A model generated the notes under the pieces. It saw only the letters and a list, made by a program, of their open reading frames with translations, had not been told where the DNA came from and searched no databases. A program made the position numbers and the translations under genes. Positions 3,014 to 53,782 of a stretch of 53,802 nucleotides of DNA are shown piece by piece (position 1 is the first letter of the stretch; every line of letters starts with the position of its first letter). The stretch is from a virus. Lineage: Duplodnaviria > Caudoviricetes. Location: IMG/VR virus record IMGVR_UViG_3300034072_000696, positions 1-53,802 of that record; one strand, 5' to 3'.

Positions 3014-3545
3014 TTCGTTCCACAGCTCCAGCTTCCACCCGTCGTCATGGCGGGGTGTGGAAGGTGAGGTCCGGCCTGTTGTCCAGCCGCTCAACGGCGG
3101 CGTTCGGTTTACCCCGATCCGTGACGCCGAGCCGAGGCTGCGGATTAACGCGCGCGTCGCGCACACCGCGGGGGGCCGGCTACCGGCATCGGCGGGGGCG
3201 ACGGCTACTGTCTTCGCGGCAGGGTATGTGCGCGTTGTCAGCGGGGCCGCTGTGTGCGCCGGCGGCGCCCGACCGGCATTCAAGACGAAGCCGACGGCGA
3301 GCCGTGTATGTTGCATCGCACCAACGGCGAATGCCCGAGCTGTTTCCCGCCTCGCCGCGGCGACGAAAATGCTCCGCCAGGATGTCCGGCCAGCAGGGTA
3401 CGCGTGCCCGACGTTCCGCACGTACGACACATATTCGGCGTCAGCAGTAGCGCGCCCGCGCGGCGTTTTGAACCCCAGCGACGAAGAATTGTTGGCCCTT
3501 GTATACGCAGCGCGAAAAAAGCGCTTGACACACGCTTACAGGTAA
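3000..3545 (+). CDS. Hypothetical protein (GTG start)
   Basis: Overlaps end of upstream gene; N-terminal FHxSSFHxSSFH repeat and C-terminal DEELLAL typical of small phage structural-region ORFs. Confidence 0.5.
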   Translation: MFHPSSFHSSSFHPSSWRGVEGEVRPVVQPLNGGVRFTPIRDAEPRLRINARVAHTAGGRLPASAGATATVFAAGYVRVVSGAAVCAGGARPAFKTKPTASRVCCIAPTANARAVSRLAAATKMLRQDVRPAGYACPTFRTYDTYSASAVARPRGVLNPSDEELLALVYAARKKRLTHAYR

Positions 3546-3554
3546 GCATATAAG
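3525..3554 (+). promoter_or_regulatory. Sigma70-like promoter with palindromic operator between -35 and -10
   Basis: TTGACA 3525-3530, GCTTACAGGTAAGC 3534-3547, TATAAG 3549-3554. Confidence 0.75.
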
Positions 3555-3560
3555 ACACCT

Positions 3561-3800
3561 ATGAACGATATTGCGGTGCAACAAGCGCTACTGCTGATTA
3601 AGACGGCCCCGGAGCTTCAAGGCTTCCGTGACTGGCTTGTCGCGCAGCAGCTCTTGCTTGGCGACCGTCTCGTTTCCGCCGAGTCCGAAGTGGAGCTTCG
3701 CAACGCCCAAGGGGCCGCGCGCTTCCTCCGTGACTTGACGAAAAAGATCGAGGTTTCGGGCGACGTCCTAGCCCGAATCCGAGGTGAGGGTGCGCGATGA
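3561..3800 (+). CDS. Small head-module protein (Bbp19-like position)
   Basis: 79 aa helical ORF with RNAQG motif upstream of the scaffold gene. Confidence 0.6.
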   Translation: MNDIAVQQALLLIKTAPELQGFRDWLVAQQLLLGDRLVSAESEVELRNAQGAARFLRDLTKKIEVSGDVLARIRGEGAR

Positions 3801-3812
3801 GCGCACGTTTGC

Positions 3813-3935
3813 GTAGACCGTATCAACCCAGCGGGCTCGAAGGCTCCGAAGGGGTAGTCGGCACTTCCGTGCGTAGCACGGCTGTAGACCGTAACCCTGA
3901 CGAACACCGGACGGCAATGGGTATGTAGTCGGCAC
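3813..3935 (+). repeat. Tandem 71-nt-period repeat in scaffold gene leader (possible structured RNA)
   Basis: GTAGACCGTA at 3813 and 3884; GTAGTCGGCAC at 3854 and 3925; hairpin CCGTGC-GTA-GCACGG 3867-3881 between units. Confidence 0.7.
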
Positions 3936-3947
3936 GAGGAGAAAACG

Positions 3948-4916
3948 ATGGCACTACCGAAGGCAATCCAAGCAGAAGTTGATCGCGCTACCGCGATCGA
4001 ACAGCAACTCGCGCAACCGGCAGCTCCGGCCGTGGATACGTCCGCGCCCGCCGCGAATACTGAACCGGAAACGCCCGCTGACGTCCCCGTGGAGCAGCCT
4101 GCGGCAGTCGTACATCAACCGGACGAGACCCCGGCCCAACCCGAAGCGGAAGACATCTACCGCCGTCGCTATGAGGCCCTGCAAGGCAAGTTCAACGCCG
4201 AGGTTCCCCGCCTGACCCGTCAGGTCCAGGAATCGGAGCGTGTGATCGCGCAAATGCAGGCAGACCTCCAGGCGCTGCGCGAGAAGGTGAAAACCGAACC
4301 GGAGCAGCCGCAGCAATCGTCTCAGAAGGACGTTGAGGAGTTCGGCGCAGATTTGGTCGCAATGGTGAACCGCATCGCAGCGGAAGCCGCAACCAATGCC
4401 GCGCGTCGTTTGGAAGCCAAGTTCCGGGAGGAGCTGGCGAAGGTCGGCAGCCATGTCGGCGATGTGTCTCAGCAGGTTGTGGAATCGAAGACCAACGAGT
4501 TTTGGGGTGCAGTCCTGCACTTCGTACCCGATTGGGACGCGATCAACACCAACCCTGCATGGGTTGCATGGCTCGATACGCGCGCGCCGGGCTCGCTGCA
4601 CACCTACCGCGCCCTGGCCGAAGAAGCGGTCGCGCAGTTCAACCCCGAGCCGGTCGTCGAGTTGGCGAAGCTGTGGAAGTCGCAGCAAGCCCCCGAGAAG
4701 CCGGCAGGCAAGAAGCCTGATCTCCAAAAACAAGTATCACCCCCCGCAGCCCGCGCAAGCGGTCCTGCCCCCGACACCGCCCCGGTCTTCACGATGAAGG
4801 ATGTGGAGCAAATGGGTGACCCCCGCTTCATTGCTCGCATGAGCGAAGCGGAGTACGCCCAGCGTTCTGCAGCCATCGACCAGGCGCTTGTCGAAGGCCG
4901 GATTCGCATGAGCTAA
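3948..4916 (+). CDS. Capsid scaffolding protein
   Basis: P/E/Q/A-rich, coiled-coil, C-terminal EGRI motif, GAGGAG RBS, directly upstream of MCP. Confidence 0.8.
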   Translation: MALPKAIQAEVDRATAIEQQLAQPAAPAVDTSAPAANTEPETPADVPVEQPAAVVHQPDETPAQPEAEDIYRRRYEALQGKFNAEVPRLTRQVQESERVIAQMQADLQALREKVKTEPEQPQQSSQKDVEEFGADLVAMVNRIAAEAATNAARRLEAKFREELAKVGSHVGDVSQQVVESKTNEFWGAVLHFVPDWDAINTNPAWVAWLDTRAPGSLHTYRALAEEAVAQFNPEPVVELAKLWKSQQAPEKPAGKKPDLQKQVSPPAARASGPAPDTAPVFTMKDVEQMGDPRFIARMSEAEYAQRSAAIDQALVEGRIRMS

Positions 4917-4930
4917 AGCGGTTAATTCGT

Positions 4931-4944
4931 GCTTACACGTAACC
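4931..4944. promoter_or_regulatory. Palindromic operator copy upstream of MCP RBS
   Basis: GCTTACACGTAACC next to AGGAG. Confidence 0.7.
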
Positions 4945-4960
4945 ATTAGGAGAAATTCTC

Positions 4961-5938
4961 ATGCCGTATCCCACTACTGGTGATTTCGTCACCAACCCGA
5001 CTTACTCGGGCTCGTTTATCCCGACCCTGTGGTCGAGCAAGCTGAACGCCAAGTTCTACAAGGCGACCGTGTTCGGCGAAATCGCCAACACCGACTGGGA
5101 AGGCGAGATCAAGAACATGGGTGACAAGGTCACCATCAACAATGTTCCTGATCTCACCATCAGCAACTACACCGTCGGCGGCACCCTGAGCTATCAGGTT
5201 CCGACCCCGAGCACCATCACCCTGAACATCGACAAGGGCAAGTCCTTTGCGTTCAAGGTGTCCGATGTTCTGGCCTACCAGTCGGACATCAAGCTGATCG
5301 ACACGTTCTCGGACGATGCCGCCAGCAAGATGAAGGTCGCCATCGACAGCACCGTGGTCTACAACACCTTCTCGAAGGCCGCCGCCGCTAACAAGGGCGC
5401 GACCGCGGGTGTGAACTCCGGTGGCATCGACCTCGGCACCGACGCCGCCCCGGTCACCCTGACCGCCAGCAACGTCCTGGACGTGATCCTGCGCCTGGCC
5501 GCCGTGCTGGACGAGCAGAACGCCCCGGAAAGCGATCGTTGGCTGCTGCTGGACCCGCTGACCCGCCAACTGCTCATGCAGTCGAACCTGGCTCAAGCCC
5601 AGTACACCGGCGACGCCAGCTCCCCGGTTCGCAACGGCAAGATCGGCGGTATCGACCGCTTCACCGTCTACGTGACCAACAACCTGCCGCGCGCCGCCGC
5701 CGCATTCGATTTCAAGTCGGGTGATGGCTCCGAAGGTGGCGTGACCGCAGTGGCAGGCGCTCCGGCCCGCCGCGTGCTGGTCGCAGGTCACAAGTCGGCG
5801 ATCACCTTCGCCAGCCAGATGACCAAGATGGAGACCCTGCCGAACCAGAACGACTTCGGTTCGCTGGTTCGTGGTCTGAACGTCTACGGCTACGAAGTTG
5901 TGAAGCCCGACACCCTGACCTTCGCGGTCGTCAAGTAA
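4961..5938 (+). CDS. Major capsid protein (HK97 fold, P22-coat-like family)
   Basis: FIPTLWS, EGEIKNMGDKVTI, GLNVYGYEVVKP motifs; strong RBS; biased codon usage. Confidence 0.92.
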   Translation: MPYPTTGDFVTNPTYSGSFIPTLWSSKLNAKFYKATVFGEIANTDWEGEIKNMGDKVTINNVPDLTISNYTVGGTLSYQVPTPSTITLNIDKGKSFAFKVSDVLAYQSDIKLIDTFSDDAASKMKVAIDSTVVYNTFSKAAAANKGATAGVNSGGIDLGTDAAPVTLTASNVLDVILRLAAVLDEQNAPESDRWLLLDPLTRQLLMQSNLAQAQYTGDASSPVRNGKIGGIDRFTVYVTNNLPRAAAAFDFKSGDGSEGGVTAVAGAPARRVLVAGHKSAITFASQMTKMETLPNQNDFGSLVRGLNVYGYEVVKPDTLTFAVVK

Positions 5939-5952
5939 GTCGCTAGTGCAAC

Positions 5953-5979
5953 AACCCACACCCTCACGGGTGTGGGTTT
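5953..5979 (+). terminator. Hairpin / likely intrinsic terminator after MCP
   Basis: AACCCACACCC-TCAC-GGGTGTGGGTT followed by TCCTT. Confidence 0.7.
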
Positions 5980-5995
5980 CCTTACGGAGAACAAT

Positions 5996-6265
5996 ATGTC
6001 CCACACCATCGAATCCCTGGCCGCCATCCCTGGCGTTCAACTGGTCGCCGGCTCGTTTATCGCCCGCATCAACCACGCGAACACCGAGATCGCGACCGTC
6101 GGCAAGCATGACGGCATCCTGTCGTTGACCGAGGCCGGCATCGAGTTCCTCAAGACCCTGGAAGCCCCCGCCGCGAAGGCCGCAGCGCCGACCAAGGGTA
6201 AGGCTGCCAAGGCTGACGCCGCTCCGGTTGTCGGCGACGCTGAAAAGTCTCTGGACCTGGACTAA
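5996..6265 (+). CDS. Small hypothetical head-associated protein
   Basis: GGAG RBS, ATG 5996, A/K-rich C-terminus. Confidence 0.7.
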   Translation: MSHTIESLAAIPGVQLVAGSFIARINHANTEIATVGKHDGILSLTEAGIEFLKTLEAPAAKAAAPTKGKAAKADAAPVVGDAEKSLDLD

Positions 6266-6271
6266 ACGCCC

Positions 6272-6601
6272 ATGCCGTACACGATGCAGGATGTCATCGA
6301 CAAGGGCCGCTATCCGCTTAACGATCCGACCAAGGTTCGTTACCCGGATGCGGCGCTGCTCGGCTTCGGCAACGACGCCATCCTGCTCACGCGCAAGAAG
6401 CGCCCCGATTTGTTCCTCGGGGCGTGGTCGGCTCTGCCGGGCAATCTTGCGTTCGGGGATACGTTCCCGCTCCCCGACGAGTACGTACCGCTCGTCGCGG
6501 ACTACATTTCTGGCCGCGCCGAGCTGATCGACGACGAACACGCGAACTCCGGCCGTGCCGAGAAGCTCGTGATGACCTTCTATGAGGGCCTTCTGACGTG
6601 A
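6272..6601 (+). CDS. Putative head-tail adaptor-related protein (DUF6682-like)
   Basis: LND..VRYPDA.LL, RPDLF motifs; position after MCP. Confidence 0.55.
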   Translation: MPYTMQDVIDKGRYPLNDPTKVRYPDAALLGFGNDAILLTRKKRPDLFLGAWSALPGNLAFGDTFPLPDEYVPLVADYISGRAELIDDEHANSGRAEKLVMTFYEGLLT

Positions 6602-7239
6602 GTACCGCCGCTTGGGAGACCCTGTTCGACGACGTGCTGCCGGAAGTCAGCGCGTGCGCGCAGAACGTGGCTGCAGCGGCGATCCGCCGGGCCACGATCG
6701 AGTTTTGCCGCGACACCCTGGTCTATAGCGCGATCCTCGCGCCGATCAACGTCGTCGCGGGCCAGCGCCGCTACATCCTGACGCCCCCGTCAGCCGACGT
6801 GGCGGTAGGCATGATCTTGAATCTGTCGCTCGGTGGGGCTACGTGCCACCCGGTCGCGCCGGATGAACTCGCGGCGAACAACCCGTCCTGGATGCGTGAG
6901 ACGGGCTCGCCGCGCGGCTTCATGGAGCCGGAACCGGGCACCGTTGAGTTTTTCCCCATCCCGGACACGAACACCACTGCAGGACTGCAGGCGCACGTGG
7001 CGCTGATCCCGAGCCAAACCGCGCTCGGCGCTCCTGCGTGGCTGTTTGAGAAGCACGGGTTCGAGATCGCCGAGGGCGCCAAGCACTACTTGATGCTGAC
7101 CCCGGGCCGCCCGTACTCCAACCCGACCCTGGCCGATTTTTACGGGCGCCGTTTCGCCAGCGCCAAGACCGACGCCAAGAACGCTGCCAATCGTGGCGGC
7201 GCCCGCGCCGGTATGCGCATCCAGCTACGAAAGAGTTAA
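6598..7239 (+). CDS. Putative podoviral adaptor / tail tubular protein A-like
   Basis: GTGA overlap; ATIEFC, FFPIPD, PGRPYSNP motifs. Confidence 0.65.
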   Translation: MSTAAWETLFDDVLPEVSACAQNVAAAAIRRATIEFCRDTLVYSAILAPINVVAGQRRYILTPPSADVAVGMILNLSLGGATCHPVAPDELAANNPSWMRETGSPRGFMEPEPGTVEFFPIPDTNTTAGLQAHVALIPSQTALGAPAWLFEKHGFEIAEGAKHYLMLTPGRPYSNPTLADFYGRRFASAKTDAKNAANRGGARAGMRIQLRKS

Positions 7240-12256: not shown

Positions 12257-12281
12257 GCCGTGTATATGCTTACGTGTAACC
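12240..12281 (+). promoter_or_regulatory. Internal sigma70-like promoter plus operator upstream of GNAT/ejection genes
   Basis: TTGACA 12240-12245, 17-nt spacer, TATATG 12263-12268, GCTTACGTGTAACC 12268-12281. Confidence 0.7.
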
Positions 12282-12296
12282 ACGTAAGCGGCGAAC

Positions 12297-12923
12297 ATGA
12301 CCGAAATCCAAGCGATTCTGCGTAGCGTTCTGGCGATGAATCAGGGAAGCCGCCTGACGCCGGAACTCGCGCTCGGAATCGAGCAAAGCATCGTCACCCA
12401 GGTGAGCGCGCTTCGCAGTCAGGACAAGGCAATCGCGCTGCGCGGGTTCGTCCCCGAGCAGTATCAGGACGTGGTCTTCGCCGTGGAGCGCATGGAAAAC
12501 CTCGTCGACGAGATCGAGCCGCTGCACCACGCGCACTGGCAAGAGTCGGAATCCGCGCGCCATGAGCTGCCGTACAACCCGAACTACGAGGGTTGGGTGC
12601 AGCACGAGCGCGCAGGTTCCTTCATGGTGTTCACCGTCCGTAACGCCACGGGCGCGCTCAAGGGCTACATGCAGATGTATGTCGGGCGCTCGAACCATAC
12701 CGGCGTCCTTCTGAGCAACGAAGACGCACTGTTCCTGGACCCTGAGGTTCGTAAGGGCTTCGTCTGCCGCCGGTTCGCTGCGTACGCCGAAAAGTGCATG
12801 CGCGAGCTTGGCGTGCGGGAAATCCGTCTGTCGGTGAAGAACACCAACGGCGTGTGGAAGGTGTGGACCCGCATGGGGTTCGCCGCCACGGGCGTGGAAC
12901 TCATCAAGATTCTGGAGGATTGA
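12297..12923 (+). CDS. GNAT-family acetyltransferase-like protein
   Basis: DALFLDPEVRKG (motif A), VWTRMGF (motif B). Confidence 0.75.
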   Translation: MTEIQAILRSVLAMNQGSRLTPELALGIEQSIVTQVSALRSQDKAIALRGFVPEQYQDVVFAVERMENLVDEIEPLHHAHWQESESARHELPYNPNYEGWVQHERAGSFMVFTVRNATGALKGYMQMYVGRSNHTGVLLSNEDALFLDPEVRKGFVCRRFAAYAEKCMRELGVREIRLSVKNTNGVWKVWTRMGFAATGVELIKILED

Positions 12924-12924
12924 T

Positions 12925-15215: not shown

Positions 15216-15217
15216 TT

Positions 15218-16678: not shown

Positions 16679-16687
16679 GGATCATTG

Positions 16688-41412: not shown

Positions 41413-41435
41413 TCGGGTTCCTTCTCCGGTTTGTG

Positions 41436-43048: not shown

Positions 43049-43061
43049 GATCTGTCCTTGA

Positions 43062-43087
43062 GACACCCCGGCCGAAGCCGGGGTGTC
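43062..43087 (-). terminator. 11-bp hairpin with C(UUCG)G tetraloop
   Basis: GACACCCCGGC-TTCG-GCCGGGGTGTC on - strand; no U-tract. Confidence 0.55.
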
Positions 43088-43124
43088 GGTTTAGTAGCGG
43101 CGCCCACGAGCTTGGCGCGGCCCA

Positions 43125-43931
43125 TCACTTGAGGCTGATGAACGGAACGGCGCCGCCGGCTTGCGTCACAGGTAGCTTGCCGTCCCACTTCTCGATGGCC
43201 TTCAAGCGGACGTAGTCATCGCCGCCCTGGACAGAGATCGCTTGCGCGCTGATGCGGATGGCGTCCGCGTTACCCTGGGCCTCGACGCGCTTGCGGTCTG
43301 CCTCAGCCTTGGCGAGTTCGACTTCTTTCTGCTTCGTCATGATCTGGTAGTCACGCTTGGCGTTCTCCTTGATGCTCGCCTCCAGTGCCGGATCGGTCAC
43401 GAGGTTGCGGATGTTGACCGTGCGGACGAAGAACCAGCCCTTGCCAGCCTCAGTGTCGAGACTGGCCTGCAGAATCTTCGCGACCTCGGCCGCGATCTCG
43501 ACGCGCTTGGTGTGGATCACGTCGGACTTGAAATCGTCGACCGCGTTGAAGATGGCCTCGCGCGCCTGGCGGGTCACATAGTTGAATCCAATGCGCGCAC
43601 CATCTTCGGTCGGCTCGTATGAAACATCGCCCGGCCATCGCGTCATGATGGCGACAGCCTTGCTGGGGTCGATCTGCACATAGATGTCCACGTCCAGGTC
43701 TGCCAGGGTGATCTTGTCCGCGGTCTGCGGGCGCAGGTCCGACAGTTGGATCGGCAGTTCCTTAGTGGAGACCTCGGTCACACGCTTGAACAGGGTGAAG
43801 TACACGCCCGGCTGCATGGTCTCAGCGGAGACCTGGCCCATCGTGGACTCGACGCCCACGTTGCCGGTGTCGATCTGCGAACAGCCCGTCAGGGCAACTG
43901 CGATTGCTGCAGTGATGAGAAACTTCTTCAA
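43125..43931 (-). CDS. SPFH/Band 7/prohibitin-family lipoprotein
   Basis: LTGC lipobox, IDTGNVGV, AEA..AQG.ADA coil, IEKWDGKLP. Confidence 0.9.
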   Translation of the reverse strand: MKKFLITAAIAVALTGCSQIDTGNVGVESTMGQVSAETMQPGVYFTLFKRVTEVSTKELPIQLSDLRPQTADKITLADLDVDIYVQIDPSKAVAIMTRWPGDVSYEPTEDGARIGFNYVTRQAREAIFNAVDDFKSDVIHTKRVEIAAEVAKILQASLDTEAGKGWFFVRTVNIRNLVTDPALEASIKENAKRDYQIMTKQKEVELAKAEADRKRVEAQGNADAIRISAQAISVQGGDDYVRLKAIEKWDGKLPVTQAGGAVPFISLK

Positions 43932-43940
43932 AGCAAACTC

Positions 43941-44132
43941 CTAAAAGATAGATGCTGCAGGGAGGTGCAGCGCCGTCAGGATGACCAGCGCTGCGATGGC
44001 GAGGATCACGCCGAAGCGGATGCCGTGCAGGGCGATAAACCCGAACACGGCCTTCCTCGTGCTCGTCGGGGCCATGCTGTAAAACACGTAGCCGGCGACG
44101 AGCAGAAACAAGACGAGGAGGAGGTGGCGCAT
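43941..44132 (-). CDS. Small membrane protein (2 TM)
   Basis: 63 aa, two hydrophobic segments, upstream of SPFH. Confidence 0.7.
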   Translation of the reverse strand: MRHLLLVLFLLVAGYVFYSMAPTSTRKAVFGFIALHGIRFGVILAIAALVILTALHLPAASIF

Positions 44133-44135
44133 GGC

Positions 44136-44708
44136 TTACGCGCGGCTGTCCACGTACTCGACCAGCTTGGCGATGTCGGCCTTGATCGCGTCGATCTTGG
44201 CGACCAGCTTCTTGGGCTTGTTCTTGATGTCGTCGTAGCTCGTGACCTTGGCTTCGAGGTTGGCGATCATCGAGAAAATCTGGTCGTCGCTCATCTTGTC
44301 CGCGCGTTGGCCGTGGATCAGCACCACGGTCTCGATGGTCGGGCGCAGTGCGTCGCCAGTGTCGTACGCTTCCATCGCCGGGATTTTGGGGCTCTTGGCC
44401 TGGGGGATACTCGTTTCGTTCATTTCTGTTTCCTCCGTGCGAAGGGCCTGACCCTTCGTGGTTACGGTGAAGTTGCCTGCGCGGTCGACGTCGATCAGCT
44501 TGTGCGTCTGCGCTAGCCGGGACAAGACGGCGGTCGCGGAGCGTTCGCAATGTCGCGCCATGTTGACCAGCGACATACCCTGTTTGAAATACTCGATCAG
44601 CAGTGCGTCGTCGGACTTCGTCCACGAGCTACCTGACTTCGCTCCGCGCGGATACGCCTGCCCCGCCATGTTGACGGTGTTCGCCGAAGCGAAAATGTTT
44701 TCGTTCAT
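44136..44708 (-). CDS. Hypothetical protein with Myb/HTH-like N-terminus and coiled C-terminus
   Basis: G.SWT..DD..L......G.....MA....RS..AV.SRL; AGGAG RBS. Confidence 0.65.
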   Translation of the reverse strand: MNENIFASANTVNMAGQAYPRGAKSGSSWTKSDDALLIEYFKQGMSLVNMARHCERSATAVLSRLAQTHKLIDVDRAGNFTVTTKGQALRTEETEMNETSIPQAKSPKIPAMEAYDTGDALRPTIETVVLIHGQRADKMSDDQIFSMIANLEAKVTSYDDIKNKPKKLVAKIDAIKADIAKLVEYVDSRA

Positions 44709-44719
44709 GTGGTGCTCCT

Positions 44720-44742
44720 AAAGGCCGGGGTTCGCCCCGGCC
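44720..44742 (-). terminator. Intrinsic terminator-like hairpin
   Basis: GGCCGGGG-CGAA-CCCCGGCC-TTT on - strand. Confidence 0.6.
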
Positions 44743-44753
44743 CTATCGGTTGC

Positions 44754-45194
44754 TTAGGCGTCGATGGTGTACTTCACCGAGCCATCGGCCACTTCGTCGC
44801 GGCTCACCTTGAGGGTGACGGAGCGGGTGCCCTTGTCGCCCTTGCTGGTGAACACGCCCTTGACGCGGAAGTAGTCGTCGGTGACTTCGATCACGTCGGC
44901 GTCCTGGCCTTCGTCAAGGAAGTTCTTCACGCCGTCGAACTTGTGCAGCACGTCGCCTTCCTGCGGCCACTGATACACCGGCAGGTCGCTCGCAGCGGGG
45001 GCCTCGGCCGCGCCGGTGTCGGTCTGGTTACCAGTAACCACGTTGTCGGCCGGCTTGTCCGCGTGAGTGGTGCGTGCGCCGGTGACGATCGCATGGAGGA
45101 TGGCGTCGAACGGGCTGACGGCCTGCGGCTGGGCGCCCAGGGCGATGTGCAGGGTGACGTTGAGGTTCTTGATGTTGATGGTGGTCTTGCTCAT
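44754..45194 (-). CDS. Hypothetical protein
   Basis: 146 aa, AAGGAG RBS. Confidence 0.75.
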   Translation of the reverse strand: MSKTTINIKNLNVTLHIALGAQPQAVSPFDAILHAIVTGARTTHADKPADNVVTGNQTDTGAAEAPAASDLPVYQWPQEGDVLHKFDGVKNFLDEGQDADVIEVTDDYFRVKGVFTSKGDKGTRSVTLKVSRDEVADGSVKYTIDA

Positions 45195-45220
45195 GGTGTT
45201 GCTCCTTGTGGTTGAAAAGG

Positions 45221-45412
45221 TTAGACGGTGCCGAGTTCTGCGACGCCGTTGTACTGCATGTAGAGCGTTTCCGCGCCGTCGACGACGGTCAGGGTGGGCT
45301 CAACTCCAATGCGGGCTTCGACTTGCGCCTTGGCCTCGTCCGCGTCAGTCGCCAGGGTGACGAACCAACGCGTGCTATCGGGGGTTGCTGCTTGAATGAC
45401 AAAGGGTTGCAT
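45221..45412 (-). CDS. Small hypothetical protein (63 aa)
   Basis: AGGAG RBS before ATG 45412. Confidence 0.6.
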   Translation of the reverse strand: MQPFVIQAATPDSTRWFVTLATDADEAKAQVEARIGVEPTLTVVDGAETLYMQYNGVAELGTV

Positions 45413-45420
45413 TGCTTCTC

Positions 45421-46548
45421 CTACTGGTAGTTGTGGTAGTAATCGAATTCTTCGAGCGCGGTGACCGCCGTCATGGCGGTATCGCGGATCAATTCGACAA
45501 GCTCGTCTGCGCTCATCTTCAACACCATCGCCCGGAGTTCGGCCGTGGTCATGGCGTCGAGTTCGTAGACACTGGTGCCGGCGCTGGCTTGCGGCTTCTT
45601 GGGGGTGTAGCTGCGGCTCCACGAGCCGTACCCGCTCCAGTTACCCCACGAATCGGCGGGATCAACTTCGCCCGGCTTGCGGGTCTGCGGTAGGCCCGGG
45701 TCGGTCTTGAACGCGGCGACGCATGCGTTCTTCAAGCGGATGGCGTACTCAACGTCGAGGTCTTCGGCGCCACGGTGCTCGTTCATGTAGCCGCACGACA
45801 CGTTGGTGCACTCGCCGATCAGGTCGGTGTATTCCGCCGTGTCGGTGTACACGCCGCCGTCGTCCGGCTCCAGCTTCCCGCAGCCGTTGTCGTTCAGCAG
45901 CTTGGCCAGGGCCGTGGCGAACTCATCCGAGCAGCAGCGCCCGAGGGATTGGTGCGTGATGACCGAGCAGTCGCTTTTACGGTCGAACGCAATGGCCGCG
46001 GTCAGCCCCTTGAAGTCGTCGGGGAAGTTGTCCGTCACGAACTTGGAGCCGATGCCGCCGCACTCCTCGCCGCGGTGGAACATATAGACGCCCGGCACGC
46101 CGGCCTCGATCATGTTGAGCATGATCCATACACCCACGCCGTCGTCCGCGCCCAGGCATTCGTCGTCCTGCTTGTAGGCCACGAGCATGCCCGGGTCGAA
46201 CAGCACCTCCTGCTTCACGCGCTCGGGGTCTTTGCGGTGCACGGTGTCGACGTGACACGAGAACAGGATTTTCCCGTCGCCGACATCGACGCGGTATGCC
46301 ATGTCCTCCAGTTCGCCGGTCGCGTCGTCGATGCTGGCGTAATACACCGTCGGGTCCATCGGGCGGATGTACTTGTCGACGAACTGCGCCTCGCCGAGTG
46401 AGTGGTGCCCCCGCCGCATCGTCAGGATCGACAGGAGGCGATCCACGTTCTCCGCCACGAGATCAGGCGGCAAGGCAGAAGCGCTCGTCGCGGGCTTGGG
46501 TGTTGGCGAGGGTAGCGTGGGCGGCACGAGCGATAGTTGCTTGGTCAT
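45421..46548 (-). CDS. M28/M20-clan zinc peptidase/amidohydrolase
   Basis: CHVDTVH, LGADD, GEECGGIGS, AFDR, YTDT, GY.NEH; AAGGA RBS before ATG 46548. Confidence 0.88.
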   Translation of the reverse strand: MTKQLSLVPPTLPSPTPKPATSASALPPDLVAENVDRLLSILTMRRGHHSLGEAQFVDKYIRPMDPTVYYASIDDATGELEDMAYRVDVGDGKILFSCHVDTVHRKDPERVKQEVLFDPGMLVAYKQDDECLGADDGVGVWIMLNMIEAGVPGVYMFHRGEECGGIGSKFVTDNFPDDFKGLTAAIAFDRKSDCSVITHQSLGRCCSDEFATALAKLLNDNGCGKLEPDDGGVYTDTAEYTDLIGECTNVSCGYMNEHRGAEDLDVEYAIRLKNACVAAFKTDPGLPQTRKPGEVDPADSWGNWSGYGSWSRSYTPKKPQASAGTSVYELDAMTTAELRAMVLKMSADELVELIRDTAMTAVTALEEFDYYHNYQ

Positions 46549-48796
46549 GGTCTTGGTCCTTGTCGAAATAGTGGGGGTGATACTCGTGGTTGGTCCGCGC
46601 TGCGGTCGAAGTACACAAACGCATTTCGCGCAGTCGTTCCTTTTCGTCGGCGACTTCTTCGTCCTCGGGGTACTCGTCCTCGCAGTCCTCGTGGATGGTG
46701 ATCTCCTCGCCCTCATGGATCACCGTGACGGTGTCGCTCTTATGTGCGTAGTCGTTGCCATCCAGGTCGGGCCGGTCGAGTTGGACCGCCAGGTCGGGGT
46801 GGATCAACCCCCGGCTCGTGTCGACCAGGTCGTCGAGGTCGTAGTATTTGCCGGACTCGCTACACATATGGACGTTGAAGTGGTGCTCGTCGCCTTCGCG
46901 GTAGCTCTCGCCATCCGTCTCGCAGTAGATGACGTTGTCGTCGTGTATCCACGCCGTCGCCTGCCCATAGTTTCGGTTGTAGACGTTGGCGCGGGTGTAG
47001 TCGATACTCAGGCAGTGGTTGCACACGCAACGGTCTTCATATACACCGACGTAGTTCACTTCATCCTCGGAGTAGATGTCACCGTCGCAGTCCTCGCATA
47101 CCGCGATACGGGTGTCTAGCTCCACGTACCCCGAGGCGCTCGACGTGTAATCCGCGCAGCCCGTGGTGGCGACCATGTAGTCATCGCCCTCGGTCCAGTC
47201 GACTCCGTCGGTGTCTCCGTCCAGATACGGCACGATCAGCATGTCGCCGTTATAGACCCGGGCCGCGAGCTTCACGCCATCGAGGGTTTCATGGCATTCG
47301 CGATACCCCGATTTACGCAGCAGGAGCGCGAGGCGGCCGTCGCCATAGACACGGACGTAGGTCTTTTTGTCCTCATTCACGATGGACCGCGCATACACAC
47401 GCTCCTCGTCGCCGATATAGGCCAAGCGGAGGCCGTTACCTGCATACGCGTAAGCACGTACAGGGTGGTTAATGCCGTGCAGCTCGGAGTCGATGTGGCG
47501 GCTCGATGGGTGGTTGTACATCATGCACGAGCTGAAACCGTGGGCGTGCTCATACACCCATTCCCATCCGTCGGGATCGGTGTTCTCTTTGAACTGGAGC
47601 TGGTTGCACGCCTCCTCCTTCTTCGCTTCGATGTTGAAGGTCTCGACGAAATCCTTGATGGCCTTCTCGTCATACACATCCGAATAGAAGCGGGTCAGGT
47701 ATCGCCCGGGCTTGATCTTGGTGAACTTACCATTGAGCAGCGCGTCGATGCTGCGGGCATAGGCCAACATCGTGGGGTCTTCGGTGCTGACGTGCATCGC
47801 ATGGAAGAACGTCTCGACCTTGCCCCAGCCGATCGCGAGCGGGAAGTTCCGCCAGTCGCCGCAAGCGACCTTCGCCCCGAACGCGTCGAGCGCCACGCGC
47901 ACATGCTCGGGCACAACCTGCTCGAACACGCTGTACCCCGGGCGCACCAAATGCCCGAAGACCGGGTCATCCCCCAGCAGCTCCAGCGCGGCGACGATGT
48001 CTTTCTTGGCCACCGTGATCGCCTTGGCTACCCGGCGGCCGTGTGAGTGGTGCATCTGAATGTGCTGGAGCGCGTCCCTGCGATGGTTGTGCTCATACAA
48101 GGCGCTGCGTTTGGACGACGGCAGGTTGCCCAGTCGCATGTTCTTCTTAATGGCGGCGCGCAGCGCGGAGCGTTTCTGATCCTGATAGACCTTGGTCCAG
48201 TACGCGTTATGGCGCTCGTACTGCTCCAGGGACACCGGATCGGCCCGCACCGCGTCGGTGATGGAAATGAGGTCCGGCTTGTAGACGGTTTCCAGCGCAC
48301 CCAGAAGATTAGATGTCATGGTCGTAGCTCCAGCAGAAGGGTCGTTTTTCGGTGATGCATTCGAGTGCGGCTCGATACCAGGCGAAGTACCGCCGCGCAG
48401 TGGGTCGCGGAGTCGTTCGCGCCACATGCGAAGCAGGTTGGACGCGCTCATCGGGTCGGGGTCGTTCCCTGGGGGCGGGTCCGGGGGTGCCGGCCGGACG
48501 ATCCGCGCTGGCTGTTGCCGCCACGGATACAGGTCGTCGCCTTGCATGGCGCGGTCGGTCGCTGTCATCAGCCTCGGGGGGACAGGAGAAGTCATGCATG
48601 TCTGCACCTCCTGGTCCGCGCCCATATCGCCGGCGAGCAGATACTGAACACGAAACTGCGCATCCCGCGTGACTGCCTCGCGGTACTGCTGCATGCGGTA
48701 GTCCCGAATTTCGTCGATGATCGCGAGGTCCAGCTCGTTACCCCGGAGCGACGCGGCGGAACGGATGAACTGCGGGGGCGGTGGGTGTATTGGCAT
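46463..48796 (-). CDS. Large SCM-motif protein with CxxC repeats and ssrA-like C-terminus (alternative start 48319)
   Basis: KPGRYL, SSCM, ARS.V, RVYG, PYLD, CxxC..CxxC, ends ARDERFCLAA. Confidence 0.75.
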   Translation of the reverse strand: MPIHPPPPQFIRSAASLRGNELDLAIIDEIRDYRMQQYREAVTRDAQFRVQYLLAGDMGADQEVQTCMTSPVPPRLMTATDRAMQGDDLYPWRQQPARIVRPAPPDPPPGNDPDPMSASNLLRMWRERLRDPLRGGTSPGIEPHSNASPKNDPSAGATTMTSNLLGALETVYKPDLISITDAVRADPVSLEQYERHNAYWTKVYQDQKRSALRAAIKKNMRLGNLPSSKRSALYEHNHRRDALQHIQMHHSHGRRVAKAITVAKKDIVAALELLGDDPVFGHLVRPGYSVFEQVVPEHVRVALDAFGAKVACGDWRNFPLAIGWGKVETFFHAMHVSTEDPTMLAYARSIDALLNGKFTKIKPGRYLTRFYSDVYDEKAIKDFVETFNIEAKKEEACNQLQFKENTDPDGWEWVYEHAHGFSSCMMYNHPSSRHIDSELHGINHPVRAYAYAGNGLRLAYIGDEERVYARSIVNEDKKTYVRVYGDGRLALLLRKSGYRECHETLDGVKLAARVYNGDMLIVPYLDGDTDGVDWTEGDDYMVATTGCADYTSSASGYVELDTRIAVCEDCDGDIYSEDEVNYVGVYEDRCVCNHCLSIDYTRANVYNRNYGQATAWIHDDNVIYCETDGESYREGDEHHFNVHMCSESGKYYDLDDLVDTSRGLIHPDLAVQLDRPDLDGNDYAHKSDTVTVIHEGEEITIHEDCEDEYPEDEEVADEKERLREMRLCTSTAARTNHEYHPHYFDKDQDHDQATIARAAHATLANTQARDERFCLAA

Positions 48797-48807
48797 GTCA
48801 GATACTC

Positions 48808-48852
48808 GCTAACGTGTAAGCATATTATACACATAAGAGCGTACGTGTAAGC
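48808..48852 (-). promoter_or_regulatory. Leftward -10 box flanked by two operators
   Basis: GCTAACGTGTAAGC 48808-48821, ATTATA 48824-48829, GCGTACGTGTAAGC 48839-48852. Confidence 0.7.
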
Positions 48853-48859
48853 ACGTGAG

Positions 48860-49057
48860 TTACGAAAAGCACACGCGGCACAAATAGCGCAGCGCCTCCA
48901 GGGCGCCCCATATCAATGCCGCCGTGCCGATGACCAAAGCCACGTCCGCGAAGAACTCGCCACGTGTGTCCTGCTGCAGACGTCTAGGGCCGTTACGCTC
49001 CAACGGGTCCGGCTCGGGGTAGGCGACACGGGCGCGGCGCTTGTCGTGCGGGGTCAT
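48860..49057 (-). CDS. Small membrane protein
   Basis: 65 aa, C-terminal TM, AAGGAG RBS, ATGA overlap. Confidence 0.6.
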   Translation of the reverse strand: MTPHDKRRARVAYPEPDPLERNGPRRLQQDTRGEFFADVALVIGTAALIWGALEALRYLCRVCFS

Positions 49058-49317
49058 GGCTGCTCCTTCGCGATCAGTTCCTCGACCCGGCCGCAGGTCA
49101 CGAGCATCGTCGCGCTGGGGTCCATGTTGGCGGTCAGGGCGTGCTGCATATTAAGAGCGCCCAGCCAGAACATCGCGATGAGCTGCTGACCCCGCTTGGT
49201 GCGCGGGTTGATCCCGTCATTGGCGAGGATGTTGCAACACGCTTGCTTGAGCGCTTCGCGTTTTTCTTTCGTCAGCACGGGCGGATGAGTGGTGTCGTCG
49301 GGCGAAGTGGTCGTCAT
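49054..49317 (-). CDS. Hypothetical protein
   Basis: 87 aa, ATGA overlaps. Confidence 0.6.
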   Translation of the reverse strand: MTTTSPDDTTHPPVLTKEKREALKQACCNILANDGINPRTKRGQQLIAMFWLGALNMQHALTANMDPSATMLVTCGRVEELIAKEQP

Positions 49318-49601
49318 TCGGGGGCCTTTATATGGACAGTGAGGGGGAGCGCGTCAAAGTTGAGCGGCGGCACGCGCTGCTTAATAGCCCGCGGCATGAT
49401 GTTGAACGCCTGGGGCCAAAACATCGTCCGCAATCCATCCACGCTGACGAAGTAGCTTTTCTTCGCGCCATACCCGGTTCGATGCGCGAACAATTGATAC
49501 GCACCACGCTCGGCGATCAAGACAGGTTCGCGGGGGCGCGGGAAGTTTTCGGGCGGGATGAGGGAGCCAAGGAACTGGCGGGTGACTTTGATTTTCGGCA
49601 T
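49314..49601 (-). CDS. Hypothetical protein
   Basis: ATG 49601 immediately after operator 49604-49617. Confidence 0.55.
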   Translation of the reverse strand: MPKIKVTRQFLGSLIPPENFPRPREPVLIAERGAYQLFAHRTGYGAKKSYFVSVDGLRTMFWPQAFNIMPRAIKQRVPPLNFDALPLTVHIKAPE

Positions 49602-49676
49602 CGGATTACATGTAAGCACGTGACGCGCGGAGTGTAGCATATGCAACACCACAGGCTAGCGGGGCGGACTTTTTGT

Positions 49677-50040
49677 AATAGCCCAGAAGTTTTCACAATT
49701 GGCCCAAAATGGGGTGGGCATTCGGACTATTACGCGAGCCCTTGTGGCACAACGGATTGTGGGATTTTGTTCAAATAGCCCAGCGCCAGAAAAAATATAA
49801 CGCCATATACAATCCCCCGTACCCCGTTTCGCGCTCATTCCACATCGCCGCCCAAAACTCTACATGGGGATTTATTATTTTTTACTGGGCTATTGGTACT
49901 TTGATATATGGAATTGTTGGGAACCCCTACTGCCACAACGATCTTCAAGTGGTGACTTTCGACCGCCCCCCGGATTTACTGGGCTATTATGCGTGACGTT
50001 AGTATAGGAATTCTCGCCAAACCTTGTGGCGCAATGGTTC
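49677..50040. repeat. AT-rich non-coding region with symmetric iteron-like repeats (candidate origin or packaging site)
   Basis: AATAGCCCAG at 49677 and 49774; inverted at 49885 and 49979; CCTTGTGGC(A/G)CAA(C/T)GG near 49740 and 50022. Confidence 0.65.
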
Positions 50041-50129: not shown

Positions 50130-50197
50130 CATACGAAAACGGCCCCAAAATCCGTAGATTCCAGAGCCGTTTTCGTATGGCCCCTCTTGCGAGGGGC
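50130..50197 (-). terminator. Tandem RNA hairpins (GCAA loop, then 23-bp stem with UACG loop)
   Basis: GCCCCTC-GCAA-GAGGGGC; CATACGAAAACGGCTCTGGAATC-TACG-GATTTTGGGGCCGTTTTCGTATG. Confidence 0.7.
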
Positions 50198-51311: not shown

Positions 51312-51515
51312 ATGCACCCCGTCGACCACAAGCTCCTGCTGACCGGCGTGCGACTCGTAGCCCAAACGGATGACCCGATGTTGCGATCCGCTGTTGCACT
51401 GCTCCTGGATCACGACAGCAGCCAGGCCCCGACCCCGGCGGAATGGAAGGCAATCGGCCTCATCGAGAAGATGTCCGACGCGTACTTCACGCTTCACGGC
51501 CACCGAGTCGCTTGA
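51312..51515 (+). CDS. Small hypothetical protein
   Basis: 67 aa, good codon usage, TATAAA just upstream. Confidence 0.55.
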   Translation: MHPVDHKLLLTGVRLVAQTDDPMLRSAVALLLDHDSSQAPTPAEWKAIGLIEKMSDAYFTLHGHRVA

Positions 51516-51568
51516 CGTAAATTTCCCCCTGCTGTACTCCTTGGGCATTAACGTGCTTACGGGTAAGC
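51512..51568 (+). promoter_or_regulatory. Possible terminase-operon promoter and perfect operator
   Basis: TTGACG 51512-51517, weak -10, GCTTACGGGTAAGC 51555-51568. Confidence 0.55.
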
Positions 51569-51569
51569 A

Positions 51570-51947
51570 GTGGAGCCGACGGAAGAAGACGCGATTGCAG
51601 GGATGGACCTGGCCCGCCGTGGTGCGGCTGCCCGGCTTCCGCTCGTCGTCGAGCACATGTTCGACGTCCTGCGCGACCCCGACTGCCCTGCGGGTAAGTT
51701 CTCGACCGCCGCTGACTTCATCTACAAAGCCTCCGGCATGGCGCAGCGGAATACCCCGTCGCCGACCGGCTCAGGCTTCCAGCTCAACATCGTCCTGGGC
51801 AAGCAGACCCTCTCCCTGGAGGCAGCGCCCCAGGCGGACCTGACGCAGACGACCAAGCTCGAATTCTCGCTCCCGCAACGGGACGCCGCCGAGGCGCGCA
51901 TGCCGGTGACGGTCGACGCCACACCGCTGGACTTCGACGATGAGTGA
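51570..51947 (+). CDS. terS: Terminase small subunit (putative; start uncertain)
   Basis: Position directly before TerL; helical core and GFQLNIVLG beta-strand. Confidence 0.6.
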   Translation: MEPTEEDAIAGMDLARRGAAARLPLVVEHMFDVLRDPDCPAGKFSTAADFIYKASGMAQRNTPSPTGSGFQLNIVLGKQTLSLEAAPQADLTQTTKLEFSLPQRDAAEARMPVTVDATPLDFDDE

Positions 51948-53361
51948 GAACACGATCACATTCACGCCGCCGCCCAGCGTGGAGCCCTTCCTGCTGGCGG
52001 ACAAGTTCGCGAACTTCATCGTAGGCCCGGTCGGCTCGACCAAGACGTCGGGCAGCATCATGAAAATCGCGTACGAGGCGTCACGCGTAGCACCGTGCAA
52101 GGACGGCATCCGCCGGTCGCGCTGCGTCGTCGTCCGTAACACCCGCGAGCAGCTCCGAGACACGACGATCCCGGACTTCCTCAAGTGGTTCCCGGACGGC
52201 GTGGCCGGCGCGTACATCAAGACCGAAGGGCGCTTCATCCTCCGCATCAGCGACATCGAGTGCGAGGTGCTGTTCCGCGGTCTCGATGAGGCCAACGACG
52301 TCCGGCGCCTGCTGTCCCTGCAGCTCACCTTCGGCTTCATGGACGAGTTCCGCGAGATCAACCCGGACATCTACAACGCACTGACCGGCCGCCTGGGTCG
52401 ATACCCCGACAAGAGCATGAACGGCGTCGGCTGCGTGGACGACGAGGGCAACGCGATCTACAAGGTTTGGGGGTCGACCAACCCGCCGGACGAAGGGACG
52501 TTTTGGGAGGAGCTGCTCACCGACCCGCCGGAGAACATGTCTGTCACGTTCCAGCCGAGCGGGCTGTCCGCCGAGGCTGACTGGCTGCACTACCTGCCGG
52601 ACGGCTACTACGAGAACTTGGCCAAGGGCAAGAGCGAGGCATGGATCAACGTCTACATCCACGGAAAGTTCGGCGAGTCCTTGTCTGGCAAGCCGGTGTT
52701 TCGGTGCTTCAATCCCTCGGTTCATGTGGCAAAGAATTCCATGCAGCCGAACCGCGTGTCTGCGAACCCGATCATCATCGGTTTCGACTGCACCGGCCTG
52801 AACCCGGCGGCGGTGATCGGTCAGCTCGGGTTCGAGTCTCGCGCCTACGTCTACGACACGGTCTACGCGACCGACATGGGCGTGTTGCGATTCATCCGCG
52901 AAAAACTCAAGCCTCTCCTGGCGAACAAGTACGCCGGCATGAGCACGGCCATCATCATCGACCCGGCGGGGATGGCCAGAGACTCCGAGGAACGCACTGT
53001 GAAGGACATGCTGGCCGCTGAGGGGCTTATCGCCCGCCCGGCCAGGTCCAACCTCCTGGCGCCGCGCTTGGCAGCCGTCGAGAACCTCCTGACGCGTTTC
53101 GTCGATGGTAGCCCCGGCCTGGTCATCTGCCCGAACGGGAGCAACGCGGACCTCATCGCGGCGTTGCGCAACCGCTACCGATTCAAGATCAACAGCAAGG
53201 GTGAAGCGTCCGACACGCCCGACAAGGCCCACCCGTGGGGCGACATCGCGGACGCGTTCCAGTATTTCTGCCTGCACGCCGACGGCGGCACGATCTTCGG
53301 CGGCGAGATGCGGCGCCAGGCAGTCCAAGTCCACGCAGCCCCGCGAGGCTGGGCGCGTTAA
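51940..53361 (+). CDS. terL: Terminase large subunit
   Basis: GPVGSTKT Walker A, VVRNT..QL..TT, FMDE, STNPP, GFD, IDPAG, DAFQY. Confidence 0.93.
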   Translation: MSENTITFTPPPSVEPFLLADKFANFIVGPVGSTKTSGSIMKIAYEASRVAPCKDGIRRSRCVVVRNTREQLRDTTIPDFLKWFPDGVAGAYIKTEGRFILRISDIECEVLFRGLDEANDVRRLLSLQLTFGFMDEFREINPDIYNALTGRLGRYPDKSMNGVGCVDDEGNAIYKVWGSTNPPDEGTFWEELLTDPPENMSVTFQPSGLSAEADWLHYLPDGYYENLAKGKSEAWINVYIHGKFGESLSGKPVFRCFNPSVHVAKNSMQPNRVSANPIIIGFDCTGLNPAAVIGQLGFESRAYVYDTVYATDMGVLRFIREKLKPLLANKYAGMSTAIIIDPAGMARDSEERTVKDMLAAEGLIARPARSNLLAPRLAAVENLLTRFVDGSPGLVICPNGSNADLIAALRNRYRFKINSKGEASDTPDKAHPWGDIADAFQYFCLHADGGTIFGGEMRRQAVQVHAAPRGWAR

Positions 53362-53378
53362 CCACAGAGGAGCACGAC

Positions 53379-53756
53379 ATGAACGAACCGATCGAGCAGG
53401 AAATCCAGCGCAAGGGCCTGAATGCACCACGCCTGACCCCGAACGACATCGAGGGGAACATCGCCAGCGAGCACTATTTCACCGCGGCAGAGGGCACGCT
53501 GGGCGCCGCCGTGTGGGGCGATTACGCGCCGACCATTGCAGCGGGCAGCTTCGAGCAGCCGAGGCAGTCGCTCGACTGCCTGACGTTCTGCGTGCTGATC
53601 CTCAAGAACGGCTTCACCGTGACCGGCGAATCTGCCTGCGCCAGCCCGGAGAACTTCGACGTCCAGATCGGCCGAAAGATCGCCCGCGAGAACGCGCTCC
53701 AGAAAATTTGGCCGCTCATGGGCTACGAGTTGAAGTCCCGCCTAAAAAGCGCTTGA
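53379..53756 (+). CDS. N4 Gp49 / Sf6 Gp66 family protein
   Basis: APRLTP, LTFCVLILKNGFTVTGESACASPENFD..IGRKIA..NA..KIWPLMGY; GAGGAG RBS. Confidence 0.88.
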   Translation: MNEPIEQEIQRKGLNAPRLTPNDIEGNIASEHYFTAAEGTLGAAVWGDYAPTIAAGSFEQPRQSLDCLTFCVLILKNGFTVTGESACASPENFDVQIGRKIARENALQKIWPLMGYELKSRLKSA

Positions 53757-53782
53757 CACACGCTTACGTGTAAGCATATAAG
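53744..53782 (+). promoter_or_regulatory. Promoter/operator cassette, 37/39 identical to 3516-3554
   Basis: TTGACA 53753-53758, GCTTACGTGTAAGC 53762-53775, TATAAG. Confidence 0.78.

Follow-up and report, generated by a model that had tools for sequence, protein, structure and literature searches.

The DNA analyzed here (hereafter, the window) is the whole of IMG/VR virus record IMGVR_UViG_3300034072_000696, a linear tailed-phage genome of 53,802 bp with a CheckV completeness of 91% and ~63% G+C, in which copies of a short palindrome, GCTTAC-NN-GTAAGC, stand before many of the genes. Based on open reading frames (ORFs), G+C content at third codon positions (GC3) and family scans (PHROGs on 73 ORFs, Pfam on 64 ORFs), genes were called in a rightward arm, a leftward arm, and a short rightward block that includes TerL (Table 1).

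A palindrome repeated on both arms of the phage genome

The sequence-only reading of the window had reported 17 copies of the palindrome with at most one mismatch, a chance expectation of about 0.1, and a copy-free stretch between 12.3 and 29.7 kb. The copies and the gap were borne out: a pattern search returned exactly those 17 starts (five exact copies and 12 with one mismatch), and zero copies were found from 12,282 to 29,754. Chance accounts for 0.02 copies on average, and 1 at most, in 100 dinucleotide-preserving shuffles. The reversed pattern, used as a control, had 0 copies in the window. When sites were sorted by the number of mismatches (0 mismatches: 5 sites; 1: 12 sites; 2: 2 sites; 3: 17 sites), the two-mismatch class equaled its uniform-composition estimate (~2 expected), therefore the real sites are sharply set off from background. 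Both arms are marked, with five sites at structural and packaging genes (3534, 4931, 12268, 51555, and 53762) and 12 in the replication arm. The four copies said to be intragenic were located in the genes for an SNF2 helicase (30732), a PD-(D/E)XK nuclease (33104), and PolA (35433), and in a 777-aa ORF without a family match (47442).

Symmetrised over 16 sites, the consensus has the core GCTTAC-RY-GTAAGC with weaker symmetric flanks (yACgT...AcGTr), ~22–24 bp overall; 9 of the 17 sites have GT or AC as their central pair. All 12 single mismatches break the symmetry without compensation, therefore it is the sequence itself, not merely its pairing, that is conserved, as in protein-binding sites and unlike in RNA stems. 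Six representative 14-mers of the sites were absent from the searchable literature. One more element, at 45026–45039 (GGTTACCAGTAACC) within ORF 44754–45194, is a perfect palindrome of the variant half-site GGTTAC, which is also the variant arm in 5 of the 17 sites; with two mismatches to the consensus, it may be an 18th, weaker site.

Table 1 Palindrome copies, gene arms, and candidate binder genes in the window (RBS, ribosome-binding site; HTH, helix-turn-helix)
Feature	Position	Strand	Match	Context
Palindrome	3534–3547		exact	Spacer of TTGACA-CAC-site-A-TATAAG; 13 nt to ATG 3561 (79-aa ORF); downstream, ORF 3948–4916, then capsid genes
Palindrome	4931–4944		1 mismatch	AGGAGA next, then ATG 4961 (major capsid gene); gap 16 nt
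Palindrome	12268–12281		1 mismatch	Begins at last base of TTGACA-17-TATATG; third half-site GTAAGC 2 nt beyond; 15 nt to ATG 12297 (GNAT-like gene; internal-virion-protein operon next)
Palindrome	29755–29768		1 mismatch	− strand TATAAT-GT-site-AGGAG-ATG 29744 (134-aa gene, heads operon whose last gene is the primase-helicase)
Palindrome	30732–30745		exact	Within SNF2 helicase gene (29794–31401)
Palindrome	32166–32179		1 mismatch	9 nt to ATG 32156 (90-aa gene); overlaps stop codon of upstream gene
Palindrome	32684–32697		1 mismatch	13 nt to TTG 32670, right after nuclease gene
Palindrome	33104–33117		1 mismatch	Within PD-(D/E)XK nuclease gene (32703–33374)
Palindrome	33966–33979		1 mismatch	− strand TATATT abuts; 52 nt to ATG 33913 of P0001 (181 aa)
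Palindrome	35433–35446		1 mismatch	Within PolA, codons 179–184
Palindrome	37826–37839		exact	− strand TATAAT-GT-site-ACTAGGAGA-ATG 37809
Palindrome	47442–47455		1 mismatch	Within 777-aa ORF (46463–48796)
Palindrome	48808–48821		1 mismatch	− strand TATAAT-AT-site; 11 nt to ATG 48796
Palindrome	48839–48852		1 mismatch	31 bp (start to start) upstream of 48808; covers −35 zone of that promoter
Palindrome	49604–49617		1 mismatch	2 nt to in-frame ATG 49601; first site of leftward arm
Palindrome	51555–51568		exact	1 nt to GTG 51570 (125-aa gene immediately upstream of TerL)
Palindrome	53762–53775		exact	TTGACA-CAC-site-A-TATAAG, near-copy of 3534 promoter; 20 nt to ATG 53796, contig end
Rightward arm	20–24582	+		Capsid, tail-fibre-like, and lysis genes, internal virion proteins, methyltransferase-PAPS-reductase fusion, 2198-aa PLxRFG/LPD39 protein, tyrosine integrase
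Tyrosine integrase	23599–24582	+ (rightward arm)		From family scans
Leftward arm	24579 to ~50770	−		HTH_17 protein, DUF927 primase-helicase, SNF2 helicase, PD-(D/E)XK nuclease, PolA, RtcB, many small ORFs
Short rightward block	51312–53756	+		Includes TerL
Candidate binder 1, P0001	33371–33913	−		181 aa, all-helical, conserved basic residues on long helices
Candidate binder 2	27865–28140	−		91 aa, weak HTH hits; slot between 367-aa gene and primase
Candidate binder 3	24579–24809	−		76-aa HTH_17 (excisionase-type) protein beside integrase

Placement at promoters and leaders

Thirteen of the 17 sites are no more than 52 nt upstream of a start codon. Measured from the site center, 13 of 17 fall within 60 nt upstream of a start, a zone that makes up 7.3% of the genome (binomial P = 2.9e-12). 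The gap between palindrome and start is just 9–16 nt at nine of the 13, and a Shine-Dalgarno-like run fills it in most. Seven of the 17 sites touch a hexamer with at least five of the six TATAAT bases, compared to 0.6% of 20,000 random places. The assertion that most sites overlap sigma70-like promoters is thus true of a part of them: two lie in a TTGACA/TATAAG spacer and five more touch a TATAAT-like hexamer, whereas the other 10 have no good −10.

Two layouts recur at the promoters. In class A (TTGACA-CAC-site-A-TATAAG; 3534 and 53762), the palindrome occupies an 18-bp spacer, and in class B (TATAAT-NN-site-RBS-ATG; 29755, 37826, and 48808, with similar arrangements at 33966 and 12268), it follows the −10, at a distance of 0–2 nt in four cases (29755, 33966, 37826, and 48808). 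The sites at 48808 and 48839 form a tandem pair. Because an RBS must be transcribed, transcription at these sites would start inside or upstream of the palindrome, and a bound protein would therefore cover the spacer, the start point, or the early transcribed region. This would be the position of a repressor, not that of a class I or II activator, for which the ~16–23 nt between site center and start codon would leave no geometrically possible place at those sites.

Conservation of the network among relatives

An exact IMG/VR scan for TGCTTACNNGTAAGCA returned 98 stretches, mostly single chance matches. Nine of those loci had blastn similarity to the window, and five homologous contigs were recognized (L020, L035, L061, L091/L092, and L097/L098). 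The whole records G005–G009 contain 1–5 copies each in 6–13 kb, placed as in the window (upstream of the capsid gene and after TerL), with capsid and TerL segments ~50–65% identical to those of the window and 51–63% G+C. Records G001–G004 (45% G+C, one exact copy per record) have no tblastx similarity to the window and were set aside as chance or unrelated matches.

Alignment-based searches of the whole clade found 555 TerL and 184 PolA relatives, and the best 80 of each were kept. Across motif-bearing relatives, which range from 44–63% in G+C and are 50–65% identical in TerL, PolA, and capsid, the family half-site is G-Y-T-W-A-C; in some members it reads GTTGAC, GTTAAC, GTTTAC, or GCTAAC, with the 6-2-6 geometry and the positions unchanged. 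Among the best 80 TerL loci, 35 have at least two family sites at a density of at least 0.16 per kb. Individual relatives contain five sites in 35 kb (G011), nine sites (G021), 10 sites in 14 kb (G025), and 10 sites vs three for the control (G024). G016 has 11 sites by the narrow pattern and 22 by G-Y-T-W-A-C, of which 14 are promoter-proximal.

The palindrome occupies homologous places in these relatives, namely after TerL and before the capsid, 134-aa, 90-aa, TerS-position, and P0001 genes. A site follows the TerL stop codon within ~25 nt in relatives (within ~10 nt in L125, L151, L171, and L188), and one precedes the capsid gene at the matching place in L104, L105, and L107. In the replication arm, a site stands 21 nt ahead of the homologue of the 134-aa gene in G011, ahead of the 90-aa gene homologue in both G021 and G025, and 51 nt ahead of the P0001 homologue in G016, which also has a site 22 nt ahead of its homologue of the 125-aa gene. 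Site 17635 of G011 lies right after the nuclease gene of that genome, as 32684 does in the window.

Intragenic copies recur as well. G016 and G025 each have one site in the nuclease gene, 503 nt from the gene start, at a place that differs from that in the window. The PolA site lies at identical codons in the window and G011, where neither the encoded residues (K-R-T-S-K-R vs P-L-T-S-K-A) nor the flanks are the same, a pattern that hints at selection acting on the DNA, with shared descent as the other possibility.

No palindrome network was found in four complete or near-complete relatives (G019, G020, G022, and G023). An apparent palindrome of G023, AGCTRC-N4-GYAGCT, turned out to be a 12-bp tandem repeat (AGCTACGGGGGC, ~7–8 copies at ~44,331–44,420 of this motif-less relative; L299) and no network. 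Two PolA relatives without the window motif have palindromes of their own, GTCCTA-AT-TAGGAC in L275 (six sites, 372–6621) and GGTCTA-AT-TAGACC in L232 (six sites, 206–3905), with seven matches to each pattern vs 0.23–0.27 expected. These sit right before an RBS and ATG, and their center, TAATTA, is −10-like. Such lineage-specific 6-2-6 specificities would fit a phage-encoded binder. A 174-aa double-HTH protein is encoded right downstream of one of the L275 palindromes.

The nearest cultured phages are remote, with 33–41% identity (e.g., Pseudomonas phage Rollin, 38% in TerL; Rhizobium phage RHph_TM3_14A, 41% in the capsid protein). Relatives were located on contigs from metagenome-assembled genomes (MAGs) of Oxalobacteraceae, Propionivibrio, Burkholderiaceae, and other betaproteobacteria, and from one Bdellovibrio and one Phycisphaerales MAG. 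The phage host is therefore probably betaproteobacterial.

Candidate binding proteins

Four HTH candidates (27865–28140, 33371–33913, 36414–37230, and 38210–38980) had been put forward as binders from the sequence alone. None was confirmed. The proteins at 36414–37230 and 38210–38980 have no homologue in any relative examined. The protein at 33371–33913, P0001, is encoded directly after PolA from its own palindrome-bearing promoter, and a hidden Markov model (HMM) found it in the window, G011, G016, G024, and G025, and in 28 of the best 80 PolA loci. Its AlphaFold2 model, built from three sequences, has seven helices at a mean predicted local distance difference test (pLDDT) score of 76.9. A word-indexed protein search with P0001 returned only itself, and an alignment-based locus search just two already known loci. 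The group of small HTH proteins to which 27865–28140 belongs, assembled by position and by reading of the sequences, is present in the window, G011, G016 (a weak HTH_3 hit), and G024. Compared to PDB sequences, the 134-aa, 91-aa, and 76-aa proteins gave nothing significant; in a protein atlas, the 134-aa protein matched DUF7307 and hypothetical viral clusters only.

Relatives also encode a Phage_AlpA protein (PF05930, 66–72 aa) between the SNF2 and 134-aa genes (G011, G016, G021, and G025). Among the 49 PolA loci that cover this slot, at least 0.16 sites per kb were found in 14 of the 17 AlpA-positive loci vs none of the 32 AlpA-negative ones (Fisher P = 1e-9, which is not an independent-sample probability, since several AlpA loci are near-duplicates and all are related). 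Stated the other way, all 14 motif-rich loci that cover the slot have AlpA. No AlpA gene of the relatives' type was found in the window by HMM, by hhalign on 419 window ORFs (best probability 12.8%), or by relaxed tblastn.

Comparison with known regulatory systems

The sites had been labeled stoperator-like. Stoperators are orientation-dependent. Passages of PMC9283540 and PMC6550527 describe the repressor of cluster A mycobacteriophages (L5, Bxb1) as having many sites dispersed over both arms, some of them remote from the main early promoters, where it stops transcription, and a passage of PMC9283540 describes it as a monomer that recognizes an asymmetric sequence. The 17 sites of the window are likewise dispersed (3.5–53.8 kb) over both arms, four of them intragenic. 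Unlike the asymmetric, monomer-read site of those passages, however, the window site is a symmetric 6-2-6 palindrome with symmetric flanks, hence without orientation, and the analogy therefore covers only "many dispersed sites for one protein"; to this extent the label can be kept. The window sites also differ from the cluster A system in lying mostly on core promoters or leaders, in a phage with relatives in Burkholderiales-type MAGs. The PHROGs and Pfam scans of the window named no repressor, with no direct search with L5 gp71 made.

A second comparison is with regulons in which one repressor reportedly serves well over ten scattered operators, many at promoters of different gene classes, as is said of C1 in coliphage P1 and of the phiC31 repressor with its conserved inverted repeats. 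As in these regulons, the window motif is strongly over-represented, and many operons have it on their core promoter or leader. In P1, the C1 operators are said to be asymmetric, and the P1 and phiC31 repressors are reportedly known and tied to lysogeny, whereas here the hosts, sequences, and proteins are different, there are candidate binders only, and the network also occurs in a relative without a detected integrase. The KorA/KorB regulons of IncP plasmids are likewise said to rely on short palindromes, which recur as operators at many promoters of a single mobile element, and the KorA operator presumably resembles the GTTTA...TAAAC half-sites of G016. They differ in being plasmid-borne rather than phage-borne and in spacing (12–13 bp vs 14 bp here), and no KorA or KorB homologue appeared in the family scans of the window ORFs.

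Lambdoid CI/Cro operators, such as the 14-bp palindrome of phage 434, are said to be bound by an HTH dimer over the −35, −10, or +1 and to be clustered in two control regions. The window palindrome is also 14 bp long, and the tandem pair at 48808/48839 recalls cooperative operator pairs, but the window sites are spread over 50 kb before early and late operons, with no evident CI/Cro pair. Dispersed operators for one phage repressor are thus already known; the present case is palindromic, placed on core promoters and leaders, clade-wide, and lineage-variant.

A putative genome-wide operator network

We consider it probable, with moderate confidence, that a single symmetric regulator encoded by the phage uses all 17 palindromes as operators in a genome-wide network. 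One sequence-specific phage protein would bind the palindromes as a symmetric dimer or higher multiple, either on the core promoter (in the −35/−10 spacer, or abutting the −10 over the likely start point) or on the short leader before the RBS. Once bound, it would halt transcription at initiation or early elongation in nearly all transcription units of the two arms, and the four copies within genes would act as additional roadblocks or as weak points of internal control. Protein binding, repression, the phage origin of the binder, and its timing (lysogeny or a timed or global shut-off) are what we infer here. The sequence-only reading had proposed that one dimeric regulator directly silences both replication and virion operons. 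A symmetric motif at blocking positions on both arms agrees with that proposal, but the silencing would not necessarily be tied to lysogeny. The window has a tyrosine integrase, as a link to lysogeny would have it, but the 22-site network of G016 (an 86% complete contig) comes with no integrase among its scanned ORFs (53 of 79), and tblastn with the window integrase found no match there.

Several observations weigh against a single phage-encoded repressor. Each of the three candidate families fails in at least one genome. P0001 is absent from motif-bearing G021 (77% complete), 12 loci with more distant P0001 homologues are motif-poor, and P0001 was rejected as an HTH protein: a Foldseek search of the PDB returned nothing at E 0.001 or better, and the best VIA-align Z score was 7.2, to generic helical proteins only. 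The 27865–28140 group is also present in motif-less G022 and G023 and missing from motif-bearing G021 and G025, and Phage_AlpA does not accompany the network everywhere, being absent from the window and from the complete genome G024. When the ORFs of 10 genomes were clustered, no family covered all six motif-bearing genomes while missing from the four motif-less ones. The half-site is near-constant across phages with proteins ~55% identical, which is unusual for an immunity repressor. As for the promoters, a clear −10 occurs at only seven of the 17 sites, and a strict consensus scan of 29,000–38,500 found 0 full sigma-70 promoters because the −35 boxes are weak. Finally, it is geometry, and nothing besides, that speaks for repression over another action of the bound protein. 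The imperfect family pattern could possibly stem from an operator shared by two proteins, from a small, fast-evolving binder that escapes detection, or from contigs being incomplete.

More tentatively, and with a good chance of being wrong as a whole, the regulator may represent an undescribed family of phage master regulators (P0001, or two proteins sharing an operator as CI and Cro do) that would bind 6-2-6 palindromes between the −10 and the RBS and hold nearly all transcription units of a large, uncultured, betaproteobacterial podophage-like clade. Its function would be an integrase-independent hold on the whole genome (dormancy, a carrier state, or timed release) and not that of a classical lysogeny repressor, and its specificity would have diversified among lineages (GCTTAC, GTTWAC, GTCCTA, and GGTCTA). 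If one protein gates every operon, one binding assay would suffice to expose the entire regulatory logic of this large and uncultured phage group, which is apparently common. Lineage-specific half-sites would offer a natural series for operator–regulator specificity co-evolution and would supply compact orthogonal operator/repressor parts. The palindrome could also aid annotation by marking the starts of transcription units in otherwise unannotated contigs.

Alternative explanations

A phage binder might not simply repress but act as a timing switch, repressing some promoters and helping others (e.g., through MerR-like spacer sites), or the palindrome might be a loading site for a promoter-proximal antiterminator as for Pseudomonas aeruginosa AlpA; we regard this as rather unlikely. 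Replication genes and virion genes alike are preceded by sites, an arrangement difficult to square with a pure early-gene repressor during lytic growth, and two late-gene sites lie exactly in the 18-bp spacer. A class B site also heads a late operon (12268), however, so the spacer sites do not map neatly onto late genes, and the majority of sites are found downstream of the −10 or within the leader, positions from which activators do not work. The small Phage_AlpA-family proteins follow motif density in the relatives, yet the window has no detected gene of their type. According to passages of PMC9371919, the AlpA element of P. aeruginosa (GGGACG) lies between the −35 and −10, as do sites 3534 and 53762, and serves processive antitermination; the same passages describe it as 6 bp long and bound by one monomer of a larger protein with contact residues up to position 142, which speaks against this reading.

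That the palindrome is instead the box of a host (betaproteobacterial) regulator, recruited by these phages, appears improbable to us. In its favor, G-Y-T-W-A-C is near-constant across phages of divergent protein sequence and G+C, no phage protein is common to all motif-bearing and absent from all motif-less genomes, and MAGs of Burkholderiales and other betaproteobacteria have relatives on their contigs. A related prophage occurs in a Burkholderiaceae MAG, and we searched genomes of the order to which that MAG belongs, a set that may not include the host of this phage. The exact palindrome was not enriched there, with 18 sites in 17 of 301 genomes vs 31 for the reversed control, nor was the degenerate palindrome in 151 genomes (~116 vs ~436 control matches, by hand tally). 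A match to a described host regulator box had been named as one outcome that would overturn the operator reading, and no such chromosomal regulon was found in these sampled genomes. Other relatives of the phage, moreover, use quite different 6-2-6 palindromes. The sole cluster in the host-order genomes belongs to a filamentous prophage of which G133 carries two copies in tandem (Rep_trans, Zot-family ATPase, and Cro/C1-type HTH). Its GTTAAC-GC-GTTAAC arrays (L321, G133:C1, ~833,680–833,740 and 841,630–841,690), with an 8-bp period between divergent operons, are a look-alike operator in an unrelated element, and its HTH protein is unrelated to those of the window.

A leader element in the mRNA, i.e., a hairpin or protein site beside the RBS that controls translation or stability, seems very improbable. 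The nine sites 9–16 nt before a start have the RBS alone in between, the L275 and L232 palindromes are also right before an RBS and ATG, and the start-associated sequences of cluster K mycobacteriophages are reportedly similar. However, a 6-bp stem with a 2-nt loop cannot form, single mismatches are uncompensated, and four folded leaders had z-scores of −1.64, 0.30, 1.00, and 0.05, with the hairpin in the minimum-energy fold of one only; the two spacer sites, in addition, would be untranscribed if the flanking hexamers are real promoters.

We give equally little credence to a special promoter for a dedicated sigma factor or polymerase, or to a replication, partition, or packaging site: the motif keeps to a fixed position with respect to gene starts and the L275/L232 centers are −10-like, but the motif varies in position relative to the −10/−35 hexamers, promoter elements are directional rather than palindromic, the PHROGs and Pfam scans found no RNA polymerase or sigma factor, and partition or packaging sites cluster rather than precede most operons.

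Other features of the window

Rfam and tRNA scans of the window gave no match. Among public runs with window DNA there was no RNA run; the four DNA runs come from one study (subsurface and soil metagenomes), and two of them are perhaps its source. The record stops 7 nt into an ORF that opens at ATG 53796 (53796–53802), behind the last palindrome promoter, and its start (1–20) falls inside a 5'-open 1003-aa ORF without a family match. The two ends would be out of frame if joined, therefore some sequence is missing there.

In the rightward arm, a fusion of SAM-methyltransferase and PAPS-reductase domains (13752–15215) is encoded near the 2198-aa PLxRFG/LPD39 protein, a "polyvalent" virion-type protein (16685–23281). 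In the leftward arm, the gene for an RtcB-type RNA ligase (41436–42659) contains a 751-bp stretch that is 82% identical in DNA to Bordetella phage vB_BbrM_PHB04, the sole megablast hit of a 20-kb query (30,000–50,000). This identity suggests a recent horizontal exchange of the RtcB gene, which adjoins a stretch of atypical composition at 39.9–41.4 kb.

A second repeat family lies at 49660–50040, an AT-richer region with no convincing coding frame (GC3 0.44–0.55 in the ORFs tested). It comprises four copies of CTGGGCTATT, two per orientation, two exact copies of the 14-nt TTTACTGGGCTATT, and copies of CTTGTGGCRCAAYGG, resembling either iterons (an origin) or binding sites for a second regulator, placed between the two arms. 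The same control region contains a 23-nt inverted repeat with a 4-nt loop and 83% complementarity (50130–50179).

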